From the NCBI RefSeq assembly GCF_048403405.1, contig NZ_CP183129.1: a stretch of 64,000 nt of DNA. One strand, 5' to 3'. Under the pieces are notes generated by a model that made no database searches, was not told the origin of the DNA, and saw only the letters and a program-made list of their open reading frames with translations. This document shows positions 37,558 to 55,777 of the stretch, piece by piece. Every line of letters begins with the position of its first letter. Position 1 is the stretch's first letter. The translations under genes were made by a program, and so were the position numbers. The stretch comes from Escherichia coli (GTDB taxonomy: Bacteria > Pseudomonadota > Gammaproteobacteria > Enterobacterales > Enterobacteriaceae).

Positions 37558-38406
37558 ATGAACAACATATTAGGCTCATCAATTAATATGCCCTGTACAC
37601 TTTTCGAAACTATTACTTTATTCGATGATTTTTCTGCTGATGATATGCAATATGGGGATATGGAAGAACAAGATTTTCTCTCACTCGGCTTAAGCGACAT
37701 CTCTGCAAAAGTTGATCCTTACCGCCTCATTAAATACCATTTTCCTGGGCCGAATTCTACTTATGGTGCTTTTAGTGTTCCAACTTCTGGAACAAAAATA
37801 TCACAAAGTGAATGTATTGATATTTTATTTGCAGAAATGAAAGATCTGGCAAAAATGTTTTCCTTTTTTGGACAATACAAAACACTCATCCAGGATCTGA
37901 TTGATCATTTTAGATATGGAAATGGCAACAGTTTCCATAGCCAGGAATTGAACTTATCTTTTCATGAACGAATAAAAAAATATGATTATAATAGCCCAAT
38001 ACGTGTAATCAAAGAATGTATCGAAAATGATATTTCTTCAACACCTACGATAGGATACCGGCCTCTTCTCCTACAAAAGATTAAGATCGAATTACTTTCA
38101 TCAAGACTAAATAAATTCAATGATTTTAAAGATAATTTTAATGGCCTGGGAATCAGCATTCATGATATCTCAGCTCAAAAAATATCTCTTTTAAGTTTTC
38201 AAAAATACGCTATAGGATGGAGTGCAACAATTCATTTTGTAGCACAGGACCACTTCGGTCTTGATGTAACTGATATCAAAAACAAGACTTACAGCAAATA
38301 TAGATTTTTTCGCATATGGTTCTTTTTACAACGGCATAAAGACTTTGCTTTCAAACCTTTTTTCACCAATTTTAACACTATCGAAAGAATCGAAAATTAT
38401 CTATGA
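37558..38406 (+). CDS. Hypothetical cytoplasmic protein, 282 aa, in a low-GC two-gene module (possibly DUF3289-like; unverified)
   Basis: Clean ORF with AAGGAGA SD (37545-37551), acidic N-terminus, no signal peptide. Strongly AT-rich codon usage unlike the flanking rarD/corA. Confidence 0.6.
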   Translation: MNNILGSSINMPCTLFETITLFDDFSADDMQYGDMEEQDFLSLGLSDISAKVDPYRLIKYHFPGPNSTYGAFSVPTSGTKISQSECIDILFAEMKDLAKMFSFFGQYKTLIQDLIDHFRYGNGNSFHSQELNLSFHERIKKYDYNSPIRVIKECIENDISSTPTIGYRPLLLQKIKIELLSSRLNKFNDFKDNFNGLGISIHDISAQKISLLSFQKYAIGWSATIHFVAQDHFGLDVTDIKNKTYSKYRFFRIWFFLQRHKDFAFKPFFTNFNTIERIENYL

Positions 38407-38894
38407 AAAACAAACTCCAGAAAATTATATTATGTTTATTTCTTCTATGCTGCATCTATAATTTATGGACATTGCGTCCTGTACAGATTTTGTATACATA
38501 CTCTGATGCTGGCAATTCAGTCTTTCTGGTCGTTGATCATCTGCCATGGACTGACAGCGATAAAATAAATTGGTATCTGAAGCATCAGAATGAAATTAAA
38601 AATCAACATCCCCTACCAGAAGGTAGTTGGCATACCTGGTATGTCATTGATATCGGTAATGGCTTCACTGACTATAAAAAATATATCGAAGGGCCGTATG
38701 AAGATCTCTACTGTTTCCCGACAATTAAGAGCAATGATAATTGCATCGTGAAAAATTACTTAATGGTTATTAATGAATACCCTTATCGTAACACTCATAT
38801 TGGTATTAACGATTTTACTGAGTATCAATTAACACAAGAAAATAAAATAGAGCGAGTTTTCAATCCGCATGACTTTAAAAAAGACAATTTTTAG
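38403..38894 (+). CDS. Hypothetical membrane-anchored protein, 163 aa, translationally coupled to the upstream gene (possibly DUF943-like; unverified)
   Basis: Start overlaps the upstream stop (ATGA at 38403-38406). N-terminal hydrophobic segment IILCLFLLCCIYNLW, then a soluble domain. Same AT-rich composition. Confidence 0.6.
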   Translation: MKNKLQKIILCLFLLCCIYNLWTLRPVQILYTYSDAGNSVFLVVDHLPWTDSDKINWYLKHQNEIKNQHPLPEGSWHTWYVIDIGNGFTDYKKYIEGPYEDLYCFPTIKSNDNCIVKNYLMVINEYPYRNTHIGINDFTEYQLTQENKIERVFNPHDFKKDNF

Positions 38895-38935
38895 AAATAA
38901 GCCGGATAAAAAAATAGCTTTATCCGGCACTCATA

Positions 38936-39886
38936 TTACAACCAGTTCTTCCGCTTAAAATACAGATACGGTGCCAGGCCCGCGAGGATCATAAAGATAA
39001 TCGCGCCAGGGTAGCCGAAACTCCACTTCAGTTCCGGCATAAACTCAAAGTTCATCCCGTAGCTGGAAGCAACCAGCGTTGGCGGCAGGAACACGACGGA
39101 TACCACCGAGAAGATTTTGATGATGCGGTTCTGCTCGATGTTGATAAAGCCCATCGCCGCCTGCATCAGGAAGTTCACCTTCTGGAACAGGGATTCGTTA
39201 TGCGGCAGCAGGGATTCGATATCTCGCAGGATTTCACGCGCCTGCTCCAGTTGACCACCCGGTAAACGCGCCTTGCGTACCAGGAAGTTGAGCGCACGCT
39301 GGGTATCCATCAGACACAGGCGAACTTTCCAGCCGATATCTTCCAGTTCCGCCAGCGTGGAGAGCGCCTCGTCGTACTCATCGCCCTGATGCCCTTCCAT
39401 AATTACCCGGCTCAACTGCTCCAGGTCGCTGTAGATATTTTCAATTTCATCTGCCAACTGTTCGATTTTGGTTTCGAACAGATCCAGCAGCAGCTCGTAG
39501 GCATTACCGTCTACCATCGACTGGCTACGGGCACGCATACGATATAGACGAAAAGCGGGCAGTTCACGCTCACGCAGAGTAAACAGACGACCATCACGGA
39601 TGGTAAATGCCACAGTGGAGTTACCGGCGTGATCTTCCGCATCTTCAAAGAAGAAGAAGGAGTGAATATGCAGGCCGTCATCGTCTTCAAAGAAACGTGC
39701 CGATGCTTCGATGTCTTCCAGTTCCGGGCGGGTTGCCAGGCTCTGGCCAAGTTCAGATTGTACGCGCAGTCGCTCGTCGTCGTCCGGTTCGACAAGATCA
39801 ATCCATACTGCATTTACAAGGGGTTGTGACTCTTCGACTTCCAGCCGGGTCAGTCGGTTATTTTCCAGTTGAAATGCGCTCAGCAT
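38936..39886 (-). CDS. corA: Magnesium/cobalt transporter CorA
   Basis: ORF open to 39901; canonical 316-aa start [15 protein letters not shown]; C-terminal TM helices with the YGMNF motif. Confidence 0.95.
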
Positions 39887-40255
39887 GACCGGGACTCCCA
39901 ATGCTTAAAATATCGGACAGTTCGGTGGGCACACAGAAACAAATTGGGTTTCAGACCATTAAACAGCCTGACTCAGCGCGACGGGAAAAATTGAGGTCGC
40001 TGACAACCGCTAAGGCTATCAGCAAAAAGGGATAGCCTTAGGAGTTGATCCTGGATGACAGGATAGTGAGCCAGTATCTACTGGGTGTGTCCAAGGCGAA
40101 TGTCCTCTTAGAGTGATCGTGCGCGCATGTTACGCCAGCAAAATTTTGCCGTCAACACGCAACAGAACACCACAGAACAATAGTTGAACTTCGCGCTTTT
40201 TGGTACTCGTCAAGGTCGCTAACAGGATAAAAAAATCCCACATCCAGGACCTATA

Positions 40256-41020
40256 ATGGCGCATCGGCTACTCATTGGTAAAGGAATGATCACCTTGAAT
40301 CTCAAACGGATTTTTCTCACCCTCACCTTACTTCCCTTGTTTGCTGTTGCCGCTGATGATTGCGCACTCTCAGATCCGGCGCTGACCGTACAGGCGTATA
40401 TCGTTAATCCTCAAACAGAGCGGGTGAAAATGTACTGGCAAAAAGCCAATGGCGAAGCGTGGGGAACGTTACATGCTCTGCTGGCGGATATTAATAGTCA
40501 GGGTCAGGTGCAGATGGCGATGAACGGCGGCATCTATGATGAAAGCTATGCGCCGCTCGGTTTGTACATCGAAAACGGTCAGCAGAAGGTGGCGTTAAAT
40601 CTCGCTTCAGGTGAAGGGAATTTCTTTATTCGTCCTGGCGGCGTGTTTTATGTCGCGGGAGATAAAGTCGGCATCGTTCGTCTGGATGCCTTTAAAACCA
40701 GTAAAGAGATTCAGTTTGCGGTGCAGTCAGGGCCAATGTTGATGGAAAACGGCGTAATTAATCCGCGTATTCATCCCAACGTCGCCTCACGTAAAATTCG
40801 TAACGGTGTTGGGATTAATAAACAAGGGAACGCCGTGTTTTTGTTGAGCCAGCAGGCGACAAATTTTTATGATTTTGCCTGTTATGCCAAAGCGAAACTG
40901 AACGTTGAGCAGCTGCTTTATCTTGATGGCACAATTTCACATATGTATATGAAAGGCTGGGCAATCCCGTGGCAACGCTATCCTTTTGTTACCATGATTT
41001 CCGTCGAGCGGAAAGGTTAA
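40256..41020 (+). CDS. yigE: DUF2233-family protein YigE (signal-peptide protein)
   Basis: 254-aa ORF with a hydrophobic N-terminal region (IFLTLTLLPLFAVAADD); position next to corA matches yigE. Confidence 0.75.
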   Translation: MAHRLLIGKGMITLNLKRIFLTLTLLPLFAVAADDCALSDPALTVQAYIVNPQTERVKMYWQKANGEAWGTLHALLADINSQGQVQMAMNGGIYDESYAPLGLYIENGQQKVALNLASGEGNFFIRPGGVFYVAGDKVGIVRLDAFKTSKEIQFAVQSGPMLMENGVINPRIHPNVASRKIRNGVGINKQGNAVFLLSQQATNFYDFACYAKAKLNVEQLLYLDGTISHMYMKGWAIPWQRYPFVTMISVERKG

Positions 41021-41102
41021 GCATTGTACACTCGAGGAGGCCAGACAAACTGGGACTGGCTACACAGTTGGAAAATCATCAGATAAATGAAGGGAAACAA
41101 AA

Positions 41103-42005
41103 ATGAAAAAAACGCTCGCAACGTTATTTTTATTAACGTGTCTGGGATCATCATCCGCCTATGCAGATAACGCTTTGATTTTACAAACTGATTTTAGCCT
41201 GAAAGATGGTGCCGTCTCGGCGATGAAAGGGGTCGCATTCGGCGTTGACCATAATCTTAAAATCTTTGATTTAACACACGAAATTCCACCGTATAACATC
41301 TGGGAAGGCGCTTATCGCCTGTATCAGACTGCCAGTTACTGGCCGCAAGGTTCGGTGTTTGTTAGCGTGGTCGATCCGGGCGTAGGCACTGACCGTAAAT
41401 CGGTGGTGCTAAAAACCAAAAACGGTCAGTACTTCGTTTCACCAGATAACGGTACGCTCACTTTGGTGGCACAAACTCTGGGTATTGATAGCGTCCGGGA
41501 AATCGACGAAAAAGCTAACCGCCTGAAAGGTTCTGAAAAGTCATATACCTTCCACGGTCGTGACGTGTATGCCTACACCGGTGCGCGTCTGGCTTCCGGG
41601 GCGATTACGTTCGAACAGGTGGGGCCAGAGCTTCCTGCAAAAGTTGTCGAACTTTCTTATCAGAAAGCAAAAGCAACAAAAGGTGAAGTGAAGGGCAATA
41701 TCCCGATTCTCGATATTCAGTACGGCAACGTCTGGAGCAATATCAGCGACGAGTTGCTGAATCAGGCAGGAATCAAACTCAACGACACGTTGTGTGTGAC
41801 CATTTCCGAAGGTTCCCAGCAAAAATACGCAGGGAAAATGCCGTATGTCGCAAGCTTCGGCGATGTGCCGGAAGGCCAGCCGATGGTGTATCTGAACAGC
41901 TTATTGAATGTTTCCGTGGCGCTGAATATGGATAATTTTGCGCAGAAACATCAGGTTGCGTCTGGTGCTGACTGGAATATTGATGTGAAGAAGTGCGCTA
42001 AGTAA
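41103..42005 (+). CDS. DUF62-family protein (SAM hydroxide adenosyltransferase / fluorinase-chlorinase-like fold) with predicted signal peptide
   Basis: 300-aa ORF. N-terminus MKKTLATLFLLTCLGSSSAYA looks like a cleavable Sec signal; the mature part begins DNALILQTDFSLKDGAVSAMKGV, resembling the conserved N-terminal motif of SAM-hydrolase DUF62 proteins as I recall it. Confidence 0.65.
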   Translation: MKKTLATLFLLTCLGSSSAYADNALILQTDFSLKDGAVSAMKGVAFGVDHNLKIFDLTHEIPPYNIWEGAYRLYQTASYWPQGSVFVSVVDPGVGTDRKSVVLKTKNGQYFVSPDNGTLTLVAQTLGIDSVREIDEKANRLKGSEKSYTFHGRDVYAYTGARLASGAITFEQVGPELPAKVVELSYQKAKATKGEVKGNIPILDIQYGNVWSNISDELLNQAGIKLNDTLCVTISEGSQQKYAGKMPYVASFGDVPEGQPMVYLNSLLNVSVALNMDNFAQKHQVASGADWNIDVKKCAK

Positions 42006-42013
42006 GGTGCTGA

Positions 42014-42044
42014 TGCGGAATGCGGTGTGGCGCACCGCATTCCG
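42014..42044. terminator. Perfect 13-bp inverted repeat between the convergent DUF62 gene and uvrD (possible bidirectional terminator or REP-like element)
   Basis: GCGGAATGCGGTG-TGGCG-CACCGCATTCCGC; no clear T-tract. Confidence 0.4.
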
Positions 42045-42049
42045 CAACG

Positions 42050-44212
42050 TCACACCGTCTCCAACCGGGCGTAAGCCGCCACCAGCCATTTAATACCCTG
42101 GCCCTGGAACGCCACCTGCAAACGGCTATGCTCACCGCTGCCTTCCATATTGACGATGGTGCCTTCACCAAACTTAGCGTGGCGTACGCGCTGGCCGAGC
42201 TTGTAGCCGCTGTCGTTCTCGACCATCGGCGTACCCATCCGTTGATGGCTGACCGGGCGGCTTACCGTGGCGCGCAGGCGCACCTCTTCCACACACTCTT
42301 CCGGCAGCTCGCCGATAAAGCGCGATGGGCGATGGTAAACCTCTTTGCCATACAGACGGCGGGTTTCCGCGTAGGTCAGCGTCAGTTTCTGCATCGCGCG
42401 GGTTACGCCAACGTAGGCCAGACGGCGTTCTTCTTCCAGACGTCCGCCTTCATCCAGCGACATCTGGCTTGGGAACATGCCCTCTTCCATACCGACGATA
42501 AACACCTGCGGGAACTCCAGCCCTTTCGCCGAGTGTAGCGTCATCAACTGCACCGCATCCTGCCAGGTATCCGCCTGCCCCTCGCCCGCTTCCAGTGCCG
42601 CATGGGAGAGGAACGCCTGCAGCGGCATTAAATCTTCGTCTTCTTCGTTGTAGCTGAACTGGCGCGTCGCCGTTACCAGTTCCTCTAAGTTTTCGATACG
42701 CGTCTGGCCTTTTTCGCCTTTCTCCTGCTCGTACATGGTGCGCAGGCCGGAGTCTTTAATTACCCGGTCAGTCTGTACATGCAGCGGCATATCGGCAGTT
42801 TCCTGCGCTAAGGCGTCGATCAGTTCCATAAACCGCTGTAAGGCACTGGCAGCACGTCCGGCGAGGGCTTTTTCCTGCAACAGTTCACGACATGCCTGCC
42901 AGAGTGTTAACTGGCGATCGCGCGATGTCTGACGTACCACGTCCAGCGTCCGGTCACCAATACCCCGCGTTGGTGTATTCACCACGCGCTCAAAGGCCGC
43001 GTCGTCATTACGGTTGGCAATCAGGCGCAGATACGAGAGCGCATCTTTGATTTCCTGGCGTTCGAAGAATCGCATCCCGCCGTAAATACGGTACGGCATA
43101 CTTGCCTGTAACAGTGCTTCTTCCAGCACACGCGACTGGGCGTTGCTGCGGTAGAGAATGGCGCACTCGGCAAGCGCCCCGCCGTTGTCCTGCCAGGTTT
43201 TGATACGGTTAACCACAAAACGCGCTTCATCGAGTTCGTTAAAAGCGCAATAGAGGGAAATAGGCTCACCATCCGCGCCATCGGTCCACAGTTTTTTACC
43301 CAAACGCCCGTTGTTGTTTTCAATCAGGGCGTTCGCGGCGCTCAGAATATTGCTGGTAGAGCGGTAGTTCTGCTCCAGACGGATAGTTTCAGCACCGGGG
43401 AAATCATTGAGGAAACGCTGAATATTCTCCACCTGCGCTCCACGCCAGCCGTAGATTGACTGATCGTCATCGCCAACGATCATCACTTTGCCGGTATCGC
43501 CCGCCAGCAGGCGGATCCACGCATACTGAATGTTGTTGGTATCCTGGAATTCGTCCACCAGGATATTGGTAAACCGTTCGCGATAGTGCTGAAGGATATG
43601 CGGCTTGTTAAGCCACAACTCGTGAGCACGTAGCAGCAGCTCGGCGAAGTCCACCAGGCCCGCGCGGTCACACGCTTCCTGATACGCCTGATACACCTTC
43701 TGCCAGGTCTGCTCCACCGGATTACCGTAGCTTTGAATATGATGTGGACGCAGGCCTTCATCTTTCTGGCTGTTGATGTACCACATTGCCTGGCGCGGCG
43801 GCCACTGCTTCTCGTCGAGGTTCATCGCCTTGATTAGGCGTTTGAGCAGGCGTAGCTGGTCCTCGCTGTCGAGGATCTGAAAATCCTGCGGCAGATTGGC
43901 GTCCATATGGTGCGCACGCAGCAGACGGTGCGCCAGCCCGTGGAAGGTGCCGACCCACATGCCGCCCTGGCTGGTGCCCATCAGCTGCCCGATACGATGA
44001 CGCATCTCCGCCGCCGCTTTGTTGGTAAACGTTACCGCCATAATCGAATATGGCGAGCAGTTTTCCACGCTCATCAGCCAGGCGATACGGTGCACCAGTA
44101 CGCGCGTCTTACCACTGCCCGCGCCCGCCAGCACCAGAAGGTTGCTGCGTGGCGCGGCCACCGCTTCGCGCTGTTTGTCATTAAGGCTGTCGAGCAGGTA
44201 AGAAACGTCCAT
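42050..44212 (-). CDS. uvrD: DNA helicase II UvrD
   Basis: ORF open to 44401 (783 aa); canonical 720-aa UvrD starts at MDVSYLLDSLNDKQREAVAAP (ATG at 44210-44212). Walker A motif GAGSGKT. Confidence 0.95.
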   Translation of the reverse strand: MDVSYLLDSLNDKQREAVAAPRSNLLVLAGAGSGKTRVLVHRIAWLMSVENCSPYSIMAVTFTNKAAAEMRHRIGQLMGTSQGGMWVGTFHGLAHRLLRAHHMDANLPQDFQILDSEDQLRLLKRLIKAMNLDEKQWPPRQAMWYINSQKDEGLRPHHIQSYGNPVEQTWQKVYQAYQEACDRAGLVDFAELLLRAHELWLNKPHILQHYRERFTNILVDEFQDTNNIQYAWIRLLAGDTGKVMIVGDDDQSIYGWRGAQVENIQRFLNDFPGAETIRLEQNYRSTSNILSAANALIENNNGRLGKKLWTDGADGEPISLYCAFNELDEARFVVNRIKTWQDNGGALAECAILYRSNAQSRVLEEALLQASMPYRIYGGMRFFERQEIKDALSYLRLIANRNDDAAFERVVNTPTRGIGDRTLDVVRQTSRDRQLTLWQACRELLQEKALAGRAASALQRFMELIDALAQETADMPLHVQTDRVIKDSGLRTMYEQEKGEKGQTRIENLEELVTATRQFSYNEEDEDLMPLQAFLSHAALEAGEGQADTWQDAVQLMTLHSAKGLEFPQVFIVGMEEGMFPSQMSLDEGGRLEEERRLAYVGVTRAMQKLTLTYAETRRLYGKEVYHRPSRFIGELPEECVEEVRLRATVSRPVSHQRMGTPMVENDSGYKLGQRVRHAKFGEGTIVNMEGSGEHSRLQVAFQGQGIKWLVAAYARLETV

Positions 44213-44270
44213 TGGCACCGCCGCGTAAAAATAGGTTGGGCGGAGAAGCGCAACGCCCTCCGCCAAAAAG

Positions 44271-44286
44271 CTGGGTATATATACAG
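44271..44286 (-). promoter_or_regulatory. LexA (SOS) box upstream of uvrD
   Basis: CTGGGTATATATACAG (CTG-N10-CAG with AT-rich spacer) about 60 nt upstream of the uvrD start; matches the uvrD SOS operator as I recall it. Confidence 0.7.
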
Positions 44287-44295
44287 ATTTGCTGA

Positions 44296-45012
44296 TTATA
44301 TCAGCGAGGTCAGAGATGCCAACCGGGAAATTTCCAGATGCGGGAGTAAACGGCTGTCCCAGGTTTGCATCAGATCGCCATTTTCCGGTCTGATCCAACA
44401 AGCCTGCATTCCGCTGCGAATTGCCCCACCCACGTCAGTGGTGAGATCGTCCCCAACATGTAAGATCTCGCCGATCGGCACGTTGAGTTTTTCCGCAGCC
44501 AGAAAGTACATATCGCTGAACGGTTTTGAGCGCCCGTGCGGGCCAGCGCGCAGCACAAACTCAAAATAATCCCCCAAACCAAACAGTTCCGGCTGGGCGT
44601 TACCGTTGGTGATCGCCACCAGCGGCCATTTCTTCGCCAGCTGTTTTAAGGTGTCGTGGGTTTGCTGCGGGACATCGATTCGGCTGCGCCATTTGGCAAA
44701 GTTGATCATTGCCGCGTGTGCGCCTGCACTGGCTTCTTCGGCACTCAGCCCGGCGTCGAGCATGGCTTGTTCAATCGAACGAAAACGCCAGCGCGTCACG
44801 TCGTGATAAATCTCGGGTTCCGCTTCCCGTACCGCCTGGCGCAGGCGTTGCAGATCTTCATTCTGGAAGCTGCGCAGCGCCGGATGATAATTTTGCACAA
44901 AGGTAAGCGCCTCTCGCTCGGTGCGCAAAATCACCGGACGGTTATCGTAAAGGGTATCATCCAGGTCAAAGGTGAGCGCCGAGATGCGCCCCAAAGGCCG
45001 GTAAAAACGCAT
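44296..45012 (-). CDS. yigB: HAD-family phosphatase YigB
   Basis: 238-aa ORF with HAD motif I ([12 protein letters not shown]); last gene of the dapF-yigA-xerC-yigB operon. Confidence 0.85.
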
Positions 45013-45908
45013 TATTTCCCCCGTTTGGCGCGTGGATGCGCCGCATCGTACACCGAGGCAAGGTGTTGAAAATCAAGATGAGTATAGATTTGCGTGGTGG
45101 AGAGGTTGGCATGACCCAGCAGCTCCTGCACACCACGAAGATCGCCGCTCGACTCCAGCATATGCGTAGCGAACGAGTGACGTAATTTATGCGGGTGAAC
45201 GTGATTATTCAGCCCTTGTTTTATGCCCCATTCGGCAAAGCGTTTCTGCACATTACGCGCGGAGATACGCTTGCCCAGTTTCGACAGAAAAAGCGCGTCG
45301 TCTTCGCTACCAAACAGGTCGCGCAAATCAAGCCAGTGCTCAATCCACGCCACAGCGTTGCGACCAATCGGCAGGCGGCGCTCTTTGCTGCCTTTTCCCA
45401 TCACCCACACTTCGCCGGACTCCAGGTCGAGGTGTTTGATATCGAGCCCCACCAGTTCGGAAAGACGCAGACCCGCGCCGTACATCACTTCCAGCATTGC
45501 CCGATCGCGCACGGCGAGGGGATCGTTGATATCAATATCCAGCAGCCGATTCATATCATCGACGTCGATGTTTTTCGGCAGATGACGCGGCGCTTTCGGT
45601 GCCGAAACACCTTTCGCCGGGTTGGCTTTGAGCTCGTTCTGGCTGACCAGCCAGTCAAAAAAGCTACGTAGCGCAGAAAGCCGTAACGCCAGACTTGCAG
45701 CTCCCAGCCCTTTACGGCGACTGCGTACAGCGAAATTGCGCACCATCGTCACATCACATTGCTGCCAGCTTTGCAGGCCGTTTTCGCTGGCAAAATTGAT
45801 GATCGCCTCAAGCTGACGCTGGTAGTTAAGCAGGGTTATCGGGCTTAGCTGGCGCTCCACGCTCAGATAACGTAGGTAGCGTTCTACATCGGTGTGTAAA
45901 TCGGTCAT
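45012..45908 (-). CDS. xerC: Site-specific tyrosine recombinase XerC
   Basis: 298-aa ORF with tyrosine-recombinase catalytic residues near the C-terminus ([12 protein letters not shown] ... [14 protein letters not shown]); conserved housekeeping context. Confidence 0.95.
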
Positions 45909-46612
45909 ACGCGTTCAATCCAACGCTCCAGAAGCTCCGGCAACATCAGCGCAATTTCATGAAGTAACTGCGTTCCCTGCCCTTGTTGATAGTGACTGGC
46001 ATCGCGACTGGTAAACAGCACAACACCCAAATCAGCATCGCTTCCCAGCATCGACATCGCCACCGATCCCACCGCTTTCGCTTCAGGTAGCACCACCAGC
46101 AACTCCGGCCCGTTAAGCGGCCCAAGATAGTGCTGTTCCTGCCCCAGACGCTGAATACGCAGCGGTTCGAAAGACTGACGGCTTAATGCCAGATGAGTGT
46201 AGTTCGACGGTGCACCTAAACGCCAGCGATCCGGGAACAGGCGCAGACTCGCACCCGCCAGGCCGAGATCGCGCGCCCAGCGGTGAAAGCGCATCAGCAT
46301 ATCGTCGAGACTGCTGGCGGCGGTGAGACTACGCTGCAGGTAGAGTAAGCGATAAAACAGGCCTTCGTTGGCGATAGCCTGTTCCATCAACAGCGCCATG
46401 TTCTCTTCCAGAACATGAATATGATTACGTGCGCGGGCCATGTGCCATTCGACCAACGAAACGGTGCCGCGTACCGGATGCGGCACACGTATCGCTTCAA
46501 CTGCGCGCGCATTGCGGATAAAAAACTCAGGATTTTTAATCAGATAATCGACAACCGCCCGGTCATCAAGCTCCGTGAGTGTTTCCTGCAGTTCTTCCCC
46601 TGGTTGCTTCAT
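45905..46612 (-). CDS. yigA: DUF484-family protein YigA
   Basis: 235-aa ORF between dapF and xerC with overlapping stop/start codons on both sides. Confidence 0.85.
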
Positions 46613-55571: not shown

Positions 55572-55777
55572 AAAAAAACGCCTGCTCTTATTACGGAGCA
55601 GGCGTTAAAACAGGTCTGTATGACAACAAGTGGGTGCTTCACTCAACGTTGTGTCCATGGTGTCTGATGAGGCATAAGCGACATCTGTCAGTGGACGATA
55701 AGCACCGTAAACGGCTCTGCGTCATTCCGGAGTTTATGAGGCACTAAGGCGAACATAAGAGATGGAATGAGCATCTA
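55572..55777 (-). ncRNA. glmZ: GlmZ small regulatory RNA (activator of glmS translation), including its own terminator
   Basis: The reverse complement of 55572-55777 reads GTAGATGCTCATTCCATCTCTTATGTTCGCC ... ACAGACCTGTTTTAACGCCTGCTCCGTAATAAGAGCAGGCGTTTTTTT, which matches GlmZ as I remember it, in the expected hemY-aslA intergenic position and ending in a hairpin plus U-tract. Confidence 0.8.

Follow-up and report, generated by a model that had tools for sequence, protein, structure and literature searches.

Background

REP sequences of Escherichia coli are defined by a GTAG box and an imperfect stem with an AA-GC bulge, are classified into y, z1 and z2 types, and are found in hundreds of copies; a REP and an inverted REP, together with a linker, make up a BIME (PMC8266576). 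Mutant REPs with a perfect stem are not processed by TnpA-REP (PMC8266576). Inverted REP doublets of the REPIN kind may also decay to REP singlets, the usual outcome being a single intact REP (Bertels & Rainey 2011).

Such structures can shape the 3' ends of transcripts. Rho terminates transcription diffusely downstream, and PNPase and RNase II then trim the RNA back to a stem-loop free of a U-tract, which becomes the steady-state 3' end; REPs comprise 24% of these U-less 3' end stem-loops (Dar & Sorek 2018, PMC6061677). By the account of Liang et al. 2015 cited in PMC12306157, REPs no further than 15 nt from a stop codon also stall ribosomes and down-regulate translation.

Here a hairpin is described that separates a DUF62 gene from uvrD in a 64,000 nt stretch of an E. 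coli chromosome (contig NZ_CP183129.1, assembly GCF_048403405.1), referred to throughout as the window; positions are those of the window, and comparison sequences are cited by L numbers. A sequence-only reading of the window had suggested that the hairpin might be a bidirectional terminator, a REP-like element, or a scar or target site associated with insertion of the DUF62 gene.

Results

A perfect palindrome between two convergent stop codons

The palindrome GCGGAATGCGGTG-TGGCG-CACCGCATTCCGC is present as the sequence-only reading gave it, although it occupies 42015-42045, one base on from the 42014-42044 reported, and the inverted repeat, perfect as claimed, is 14 bp rather than 13 bp in length owing to an extra pair between T42014 and A42046. 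The stem does lie, as that reading had it, between the convergent genes, inside the 44 bp spacer separating their stop codons. The features of the region are these:

41103-42005, + strand: DUF62 / SAM hydroxide adenosyltransferase-family gene, 300 aa, with a signal-peptide-like N-terminus (PF01887/PF20257)
42003-42005, + strand: stop codon (TAA) of the DUF62/SAM-hydrolase gene; the stem lies 8 nt downstream
42007-42053: extended imperfect stem, 21 nt per arm (42007-42027 and 42033-42053), 86% complementary, overlapping the uvrD stop codon
42014-42027: left arm of the perfect 14 bp repeat (T plus GCGGAATGCGGTG); its homologue in the ancestral BIME is the outer arm of the inverted y-type REP, which in relatives reads GCCGGATGCGGCG
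42028-42032: loop TGGCG, identical in 14 of 14 hairpin-bearing E. coli sequences; the BIME equivalent is CGCAG
42033-42046: right arm (CACCGCATTCCGC plus A), homologous to the 3' arm of the uvrD-proximal REP (CACCGCATCCGGC in K-12, L014, L015 and L099)
42050-42052, - strand: stop codon of uvrD, TGA here and TAA in many other strains; the stem is 3 nt away
42050-44212, - strand: uvrD, DNA helicase II, 720 aa, with UvrD domains, convergent with the DUF62 gene

A strong hairpin had been expected in either orientation, and both RNA strands were found to fold stably: within a 71 nt context, the free energies are -35.4 kcal/mol for the + strand and -36.6 kcal/mol for the - strand (z = -4.5 and -4.8), with none of 200 shuffles as stable, and that of the hairpin core is -27 to -28 kcal/mol. 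The 64 kb window contains no perfect hairpin longer than the 14 bp stem at 42014-42046, and a perfect stem of at least 13 bp with a loop of 3-10 nt was found in just one of 100 dinucleotide-preserving shuffles of the whole window. The palindrome is real, non-random and far beyond what chance would produce.

An Rfam scan of 38000-46000 at permissive E-values returned only chance matches resembling miRNAs (22 bits, against a gathering score of 100). Within the window, no second copy of the hairpin arm was detected beyond chance expectation, and searching with the REP consensus revealed no excess. The locus is 100% identical to that of E. coli TUM14771 over 2.5 kb. Other perfect hairpins in the window, each of 11 bp, are found at 39995-40041 and 55577-55606; the former is in the corA leader, where it adjoins the small ysgD/corL ORF and overlaps a terminator-like site with a T-run, and is probably the known corA leader attenuator.

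Correspondence with the BIME downstream of uvrD

The equivalent yigE-uvrD spacer of K-12, a strain lacking the DUF62 gene, is a classical BIME, in which an inverted y-type REP (GCCGGATGCGGCGTAAACGCCCTATCCGGCCTAC) is followed by a 35 nt linker and a second REP; the latter ends in ...GGTGCGCAGCACCGCATCCGGC and is succeeded by AACG and then the uvrD stop codon. The linker includes, on the other strand, an IHF-site-like sequence, ATTCAATAAATTG, matching the IHF consensus WATCAANNNNTTR at 12 of 13 positions by direct reading. BIMEs with the same locus flanks were identified in K-12, L011, L012, L099, L014 and L015. That of L099, an Escherichia without DUF62 and with 93% flank identity, is of the K-12 type. 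In L014 and L015, divergent Escherichia with approximately 94-95% flank identity, the DUF62 gene is accompanied by a complete BIME, the order being DUF62 stop codon, a 9 nt junction GGTGC(T/A)GA(T/C) as in hairpin genomes, BIME, AAC(G/A) and uvrD stop codon.

When hairpin and BIME genomes were aligned, their outer flanks were found to be identical, with GGTGCTGAT to the left and AACG plus the uvrD stop codon to the right. The match extends over the left flank and the first 11 nt of the inverted REP, after which the hairpin genomes skip 60-105 nt and rejoin at the outer arm of the second REP, relatives reading GCCGGATGCGGCGTAAACGCCTTATCCGGCCTAC, linker, GTAGGCCGGATAAGGTGCGCAGCACCGCATCCGGC across this region. 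The AACG spacer towards the uvrD stop codon is common to the right arm in the window and the uvrD-proximal REPs of K-12, L014, L015 and L099. With the consensus of the REP 3' arm, GCCGGATGCGG(C/T)G, each arm agrees at 11-13 of its 13 positions. Compared with GCCGGATGCGGTG, the arms of the window agree at 11 of 13 positions and those of L009 and L097 at all 13, such that these hairpins, found in 220 genomes, consist of exact canonical REP arms, GCCGGATGCGGTG-TGGCG-CACCGCATCCGGC.

Since the BIME is found both in genomes without the DUF62 gene (K-12, other E. coli and L099) and in genomes with it (L014 and L015), while the hairpin is confined to DUF62-bearing E. coli, parsimony favours the BIME as the ancestral state. 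From these alignments, it is well supported that the hairpin represents the remnant of a BIME once located directly after the uvrD stop codon in an ancestor. An internal deletion or template switch would have taken out the two GTAG boxes, the two inner, AA-bearing arms and the linker along with its IHF-site-like sequence, and the outer arms of the two REPs would have been left facing one another across a 5 nt loop as a single-copy perfect palindrome.

The details of the junction point to a more complex event. The left arm of the hairpin reads GTG where the inverted REP has GCG, and, together with the TGGCG loop, this suggests the event was not a simple deletion. Generation of the loop from the BIME by simple deletion, which would give CGCAG, or by loop inversion was considered and rejected, as only two to three of the five bases match. 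At least one step of the change from BIME to hairpin is unexplained by plain deletion, given the difference between TGGCG and CGCAG, and copying of the right arm by a template switch is a possible origin on the basis of these sequences.

Other small rearrangements were seen at the same site. E. coli Eco_24-2013, which lacks DUF62, has a BIME with a different short linker (L013 175-311), and its uvrD-proximal REP is without an outer arm, ending ...GGTGCGCAC immediately before AACG; this sequence shows repeated small deletions in the REPs at the 3' end of uvrD. A 10 nt indel (GAATCGTAAA, GAGTTGTAAA or similar) between the hairpin or BIME and the uvrD stop codon (equivalent to 42046-42050 in the window) alters the distance between stem and stop codon from 3-4 nt to 13-14 nt. 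As it is seen in both BIME and hairpin alleles, and in divergent Escherichia (L008-L010, L013, L014, L097-L099 and L102), this indel is either old or recurrent.

A REP-derived hairpin that is neither REP nor BIME

The suggestion of a REP-like element was borne out as to descent, the arms being the outer arms of the two REPs of the orthologous BIME, but not as to the defining features of REPs. Neither GTAG nor CTAC is found next to the hairpin, its flanks being GGTGCTGA preceding the T and ACGTCAC following the final A, whereas the BIME-bearing relatives have both boxes. The AA-GC bulge is absent from the perfect 14 bp stem, both arms of which correspond to the GC side, the AA-bearing inner arms being missing. 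Every hairpin allele was found at one place per genome, compared with a median of 27 places for the BIME segment of the relatives in the same search. Similarly, two full inverted REPs and a linker, as comprise a BIME, are not present, only the outer arms and the 5 nt loop. The locus is nevertheless orthologous to that of the BIME in related genomes, and the hairpin is consequently to be classified as REP/BIME-derived, while being neither a REP nor a BIME.

Compared with the E. coli BIME (of the BIME-1/RIP-like form, a y REP, L linker and REP), the hairpin is alike in its orthologous position, outer flanks, convergent neighbouring genes and location directly after uvrD, but is 31-33 nt rather than around 105 nt in length, lacking both GTAG boxes, the inner arms and the linker. 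It resembles REPs (E. coli group 2: y, z1 and z2) in being an extragenic stem-loop with the arm consensus and, as with many REPs, in lying within 15 nt of a stop codon; it differs from them in the absence of the GTAG box and AA-GC bulge and in being present as a single copy per genome. Because REPs with perfect stems are not processed by TnpA-REP, the hairpin should be immobile; by this analogy it should no longer be a substrate for the REP transposase, and the IHF site should be gone. As in the decay of REPINs to REP singlets, an inverted REP doublet has decayed in place, but instead of one REP persisting intact, the centre has been lost and two half-REPs have fused into a new perfect palindrome. 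What is new is a BIME that has lost its centre and been fused into a perfect palindrome, its compensatory steps still being visible.

Metagenomes were scanned for other collapsed-BIME hairpins using the pattern ATGCGGYG-N3-9-CRCCGCATYCSGC; among the matches listed were unrelated high-GC environmental hairpins, and none with Escherichia-like flanks. Several unrelated soil metagenome contigs (L120, L144, L173, L204, L207, L216 and L217) share a recurring GTAG-tagged hairpin, GTAGGCAACYGGATGCGGCGSTCACCCGCCGCATCCGGC, presumably a REP family of some other organism.

Linkage to the DUF62 gene

The DUF62 gene is harboured by 2,413 of 5,426 complete E. coli genomes, K-12 being among those without it. 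Within E. coli proper, the hairpin was found in approximately 2,412 of these 2,413 carriers, and in all 14 of the DUF62-bearing genomes sampled at even steps down the similarity ranking. The sequence-only reading had proposed comparison with the yigE-uvrD spacer of genomes lacking DUF62: among around 3,000 such E. coli, none has the hairpin, and K-12 and others carry the BIME, the alignment of DUF62-less genomes to the hairpin query beginning only at the loop or right arm. Among the complete E. coli genomes of the collection, not one has both the DUF62 gene and an intact BIME; the sequence that best matches the L014 junction is of the hairpin type, covering 82% of it in two pieces. Hairpin and DUF62 gene therefore form one haplotype within E. 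coli proper, representing linkage over 44 bp and not causation, since DUF62 coexists with an intact BIME in L014 and L015. As the BIME occurs both with and without DUF62, it predates the gene and is independent of it, and its collapse was a separate event.

The haplotype seems to extend into a diverged allele of the 3' end of uvrD: over 1.2 kb (window 42050-43200 against K-12, L001 1443-2618) identity is 95.9%, compared with 98.9% for corA-yigE, and uvrD terminates with TGA in the window, TAA being the stop codon of most other alleles. Genomes without DUF62 share a short island, TCAGATA..TGAAG, upstream and match the region of the DUF62 stop codon at 11-14 of 17 positions; these short stretches are suggestive of the DUF62-less alleles having arisen by deletion, but are too weak to decide the matter.

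The surrounding locus is variable. The interval between corA and uvrD takes at least three forms in E. coli (window 40256-42005; L003 2277-3434), having both yigE and DUF62, as in the window, yigE only, as in K-12, or DUF62 only, with yigE replaced by unrelated sequence, as in TW10722. Nearby, between rarD and corA, the window (37558-38894) and L102 have two genes with DUF3289 and DUF943 domains, in place of which K-12-like genomes (L003 and L099) have yigG and yigF, making this another replaced segment. In E. coli HS-02 (L098 1415-2272), the DUF62 gene is annotated as frameshifted, with an internal stop codon, and is 80.6% identical to that of the window, which may reflect either a low-quality assembly or a real pseudogene.

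The nearest relatives of the DUF62 gene outside Escherichia are found in Helicobacter pylori, at 88-91% amino acid and 83% nucleotide identity (window 41103-42005; L016 4001-4897). Counterparts occur throughout H. pylori and in Helicobacter acinonychis, with a single 90% identity cluster comprising 2,579 sequences. Next are those of Aeromonas (72-76% amino acid identity), the overall range for Aeromonas, Edwardsiella and Pasteurellaceae being 65-76%; the homologue search gave no match in Salmonella, Citrobacter, Klebsiella, E. albertii or E. fergusonii. The GC content of the gene is 0.43 in H. pylori, compared with 0.37 for its flanks, and 0.48 in E. coli, compared with 0.51 for the window. 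By these comparisons, it looks like a fairly recent inter-phylum transfer, and no description of the resemblance between the E. coli and H. pylori genes was found in the literature searched. The similarity is restricted to the ORF, with neither flank nor hairpin shared, hence the gene did not bring the hairpin with it.

Variation in the stem

Eight hairpin haplotypes were distinguished among the sequences read, and exact 37-mers were counted over 5,426 genomes. The haplotypes, given as left arm/right arm with the state of the stem and examples, are:

GCCGG/CCGGC: perfect; L009 and L097
GCCGG/CTGGC: G.U pair; L010
GCCGG/CCCGC: C.C mismatch; O157 and O145
GCGGG/CCCGC: perfect, compensated; L003-L005
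GCGGA/CCCGC: A.C mismatch; L095 and L096
GCGGA/TCCGC: perfect, compensated again; the window
GCCGA/CCTGC: two mismatches; L008 and L098
Window type with GTG to GTA at the top of the left arm: A.C mismatch in the top pair of the stem; L094

Exact copies numbered 87 for the window type, 267 for GCGGG/CCCGC, 220 for GCCGG/CCGGC, 181 for the type with two mismatches and several hundred for the types with one. A perfect 13 bp stem is thus found in approximately 574 of around 2,412 carriers, about a quarter. Two base pairs have been changed on both sides, with the mismatched intermediates still circulating; a covariation test gave modest support, 28 of 500 shuffles doing as well as the two doubly changed pairs. 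All alleles fold at -17 to -30 kcal/mol, compared with -12 to -21 kcal/mol for the K-12 REPs.

The proposed path would lead from GCCGG/CCGGC, through the C.C intermediate, to GCGGG/CCCGC and thence, through the A.C intermediate, to GCGGA/TCCGC; the intermediates are all segregating, in hundreds of genomes. Weak selection for a stable hairpin and templated correction of quasi-palindromes would each account for this variation. With the perfect stem in a minority and the two-mismatch allele common, any selection acting on the stem can be no more than weak, and the element may be neutral for the most part. It is put forward tentatively, as a doubtful proposition, that the locus constitutes a natural, population-scale record of palindrome evolution, with the collapse of a BIME followed by at least two cycles of mutation and compensation within one species.

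Transcript 3' ends

The absence of a U-tract had been reported correctly, the 3' flanks of the stem being AACGUCAC in the + RNA and AUCAGCAC in the - RNA. Of the stem-loop and 7-8 nt U-tract that characterise an intrinsic terminator only the former is present, and a terminator scan made no call at the hairpin; lacking a U-tract, it is not an intrinsic terminator, and in that sense the bidirectional terminator of the sequence-only reading is unsupported.

In K-12, Term-seq under two conditions places the dominant 3' end of the uvrD strand at 4,000,258/9 (Adams et al. 2021, PMC7815308, supplementary files 1 and 2), which by our calculation lies 113-114 nt downstream of the uvrD stop codon and 7 nt beyond the distal REP stem of the orthologous BIME. 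A Rho termination region defined with bicyclomycin is found at 4,000,389, approximately 130 nt further on (Rho score 3.5, p = 3e-10; PMC7815308). The same Term-seq study reports no yigE-strand 3' end at the BIME, which counts against a role on both strands (PMC7815308). For a hairpin-bearing strain, no published transcript-end data were found in the supplements of the EHEC Term-seq paper.

The hairpin is a stable, U-less structure positioned just after an ORF, and the sequence downstream of it, antisense to a coding region in both directions, has more C than G (a C/G ratio over the first 50 nt of 2.1 in the + RNA and 3.4 in the - RNA), so that in structure and composition it corresponds to a protective 3' stem-loop. 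It is therefore like the U-less 3' stem-loops of Rho-dependent transcripts (Dar & Sorek 2018), being a stable, GC-rich hairpin just after an ORF with no U-tract and with C exceeding G downstream; the difference is that here one hairpin would serve both convergent transcripts.

From the C-rich antisense downstream and the pattern in K-12, we infer that the collapsed hairpin does the work of the BIME for both mRNAs: by analogy, it probably serves each of them as the BIME serves uvrD in K-12, as a 3' end-protecting stem-loop. Transcription of either gene would probably pass the hairpin into the C-rich, untranslated antisense of the other, where Rho would terminate it, and PNPase and RNase II would trim the RNA in the 3'-5' direction back to the hairpin. 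The hairpin would in this way set the steady-state 3' ends of the two mRNAs and shield them, as REPs and other U-less stem-loops do in E. coli.

The stem is 3 nt from the uvrD stop codon and 8 nt from that of DUF62, and 13-14 nt from the former in alleles with the 10 nt insertion. With both stop codons no more than 15 nt away, it may have a dampening effect on translation termination as well. A role as an operator or protein-binding site was considered and dropped, the sequence being REP-derived and situated at the 3' ends of two genes with no promoter nearby.

Discussion

A BIME that collapsed into a palindrome and now acts as a 3' end-protecting stem-loop for both convergent mRNAs is, taken as a whole, a fairly probable account of the hairpin. 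That the DUF62 gene, on inserting, instead left it behind as a scar or target site is scarcely credible, even though hairpin and gene are completely linked within E. coli proper and the patchy distribution of the latter (Escherichia, then H. pylori, then Aeromonas) is like that produced by horizontal transfer, because in L014 and L015 the gene adjoins an intact BIME across the same 9 nt junction, the hairpin arms are REP sequence also present in the BIME of genomes without DUF62, homology with H. pylori stops at the ends of the ORF, and no direct repeats flank the gene. A bidirectional intrinsic (Rho-independent) terminator, releasing RNA polymerase from either gene, would accord with a strong, GC-rich stem-loop that is located exactly between convergent genes and folds equally on both strands; it is very unlikely, given that neither strand has a U-tract after the stem or an A-tract before it, that the consensus scan makes no call, that transcription of the uvrD strand in K-12 runs past the BIME into a Rho-dependent region, and that DUF62 homologues in Aeromonas and Haemophilus end in canonical terminators with a hairpin and T-run.

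Two further possibilities accept the derivation from a BIME and differ as to its consequences. In E. coli, template switching is established as a mutational process that corrects quasi-palindromes (Ripley, Lovett), and the hairpin may be a largely neutral relic, a decayed BIME without function that owes its symmetry to such templated mutation (quasi-palindrome or template-switch) rather than to selection. This is a serious alternative, possible if somewhat unlikely: around three quarters of carriers have at least one mismatch in the stem, the two-mismatch allele is common, the perfect allele of the window is in a minority with its 87 exact copies, mismatched haplotypes (C.C of the O157 type, A.C of L095 and L096) stand between the perfect ones, and the spacing to the uvrD stop codon varies with the 10 nt indel; yet every allele seen folds at -17 kcal/mol or better, no hairpin-less allele was seen despite nearby REP sequences being prone to deletion (L013), and the orthologous BIME coincides with the mapped 3' end of uvrD in K-12. 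Alternatively, by analogy with stop-proximal REPs as described in the account of Liang et al. 2015 cited above, the main role of the hairpin might be to stall terminating ribosomes at both stop codons, by way of the tmRNA pathway, and so lower the levels of UvrD and DUF62 protein. The short distances from the stem to both stop codons, at most 14 nt for uvrD even with the 10 nt insertion, and the equal, 4 nt spacing of the REP arm from the uvrD stop codon in K-12 are consistent with this, although such proximity may merely reflect where the BIME landed, and we consider this to be an unlikely primary function.

Conclusions

These comparisons correct the view of the hairpin as a marker of DUF62 insertion; the more surprising by-product is that the adjacent gene is 83% identical in DNA sequence to one of H. 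pylori. What looks like a striking perfect palindrome between convergent genes can turn out to be an ordinary repeat element, a finding of little significance beyond annotation. Perfect palindromes may be disguised BIMEs, so methods for finding REPs and BIMEs that are keyed on the GTAG box and the bulge miss remnants of this kind. The coexistence in E. coli of BIME-bearing and hairpin-bearing alleles of the 3' end of uvrD provides a test locus for the effects of REP-type structures at mRNA 3' ends and on translation termination. If the compensation observed in the stem is the result of selection, a single REP-derived hairpin would be maintained as a shared 3' end or translation-termination element for two convergent genes, one of them uvrD, which encodes a DNA-repair helicase; if it is the result of templated mutation, the locus would be an unusually clean natural example of quasi-palindrome correction.
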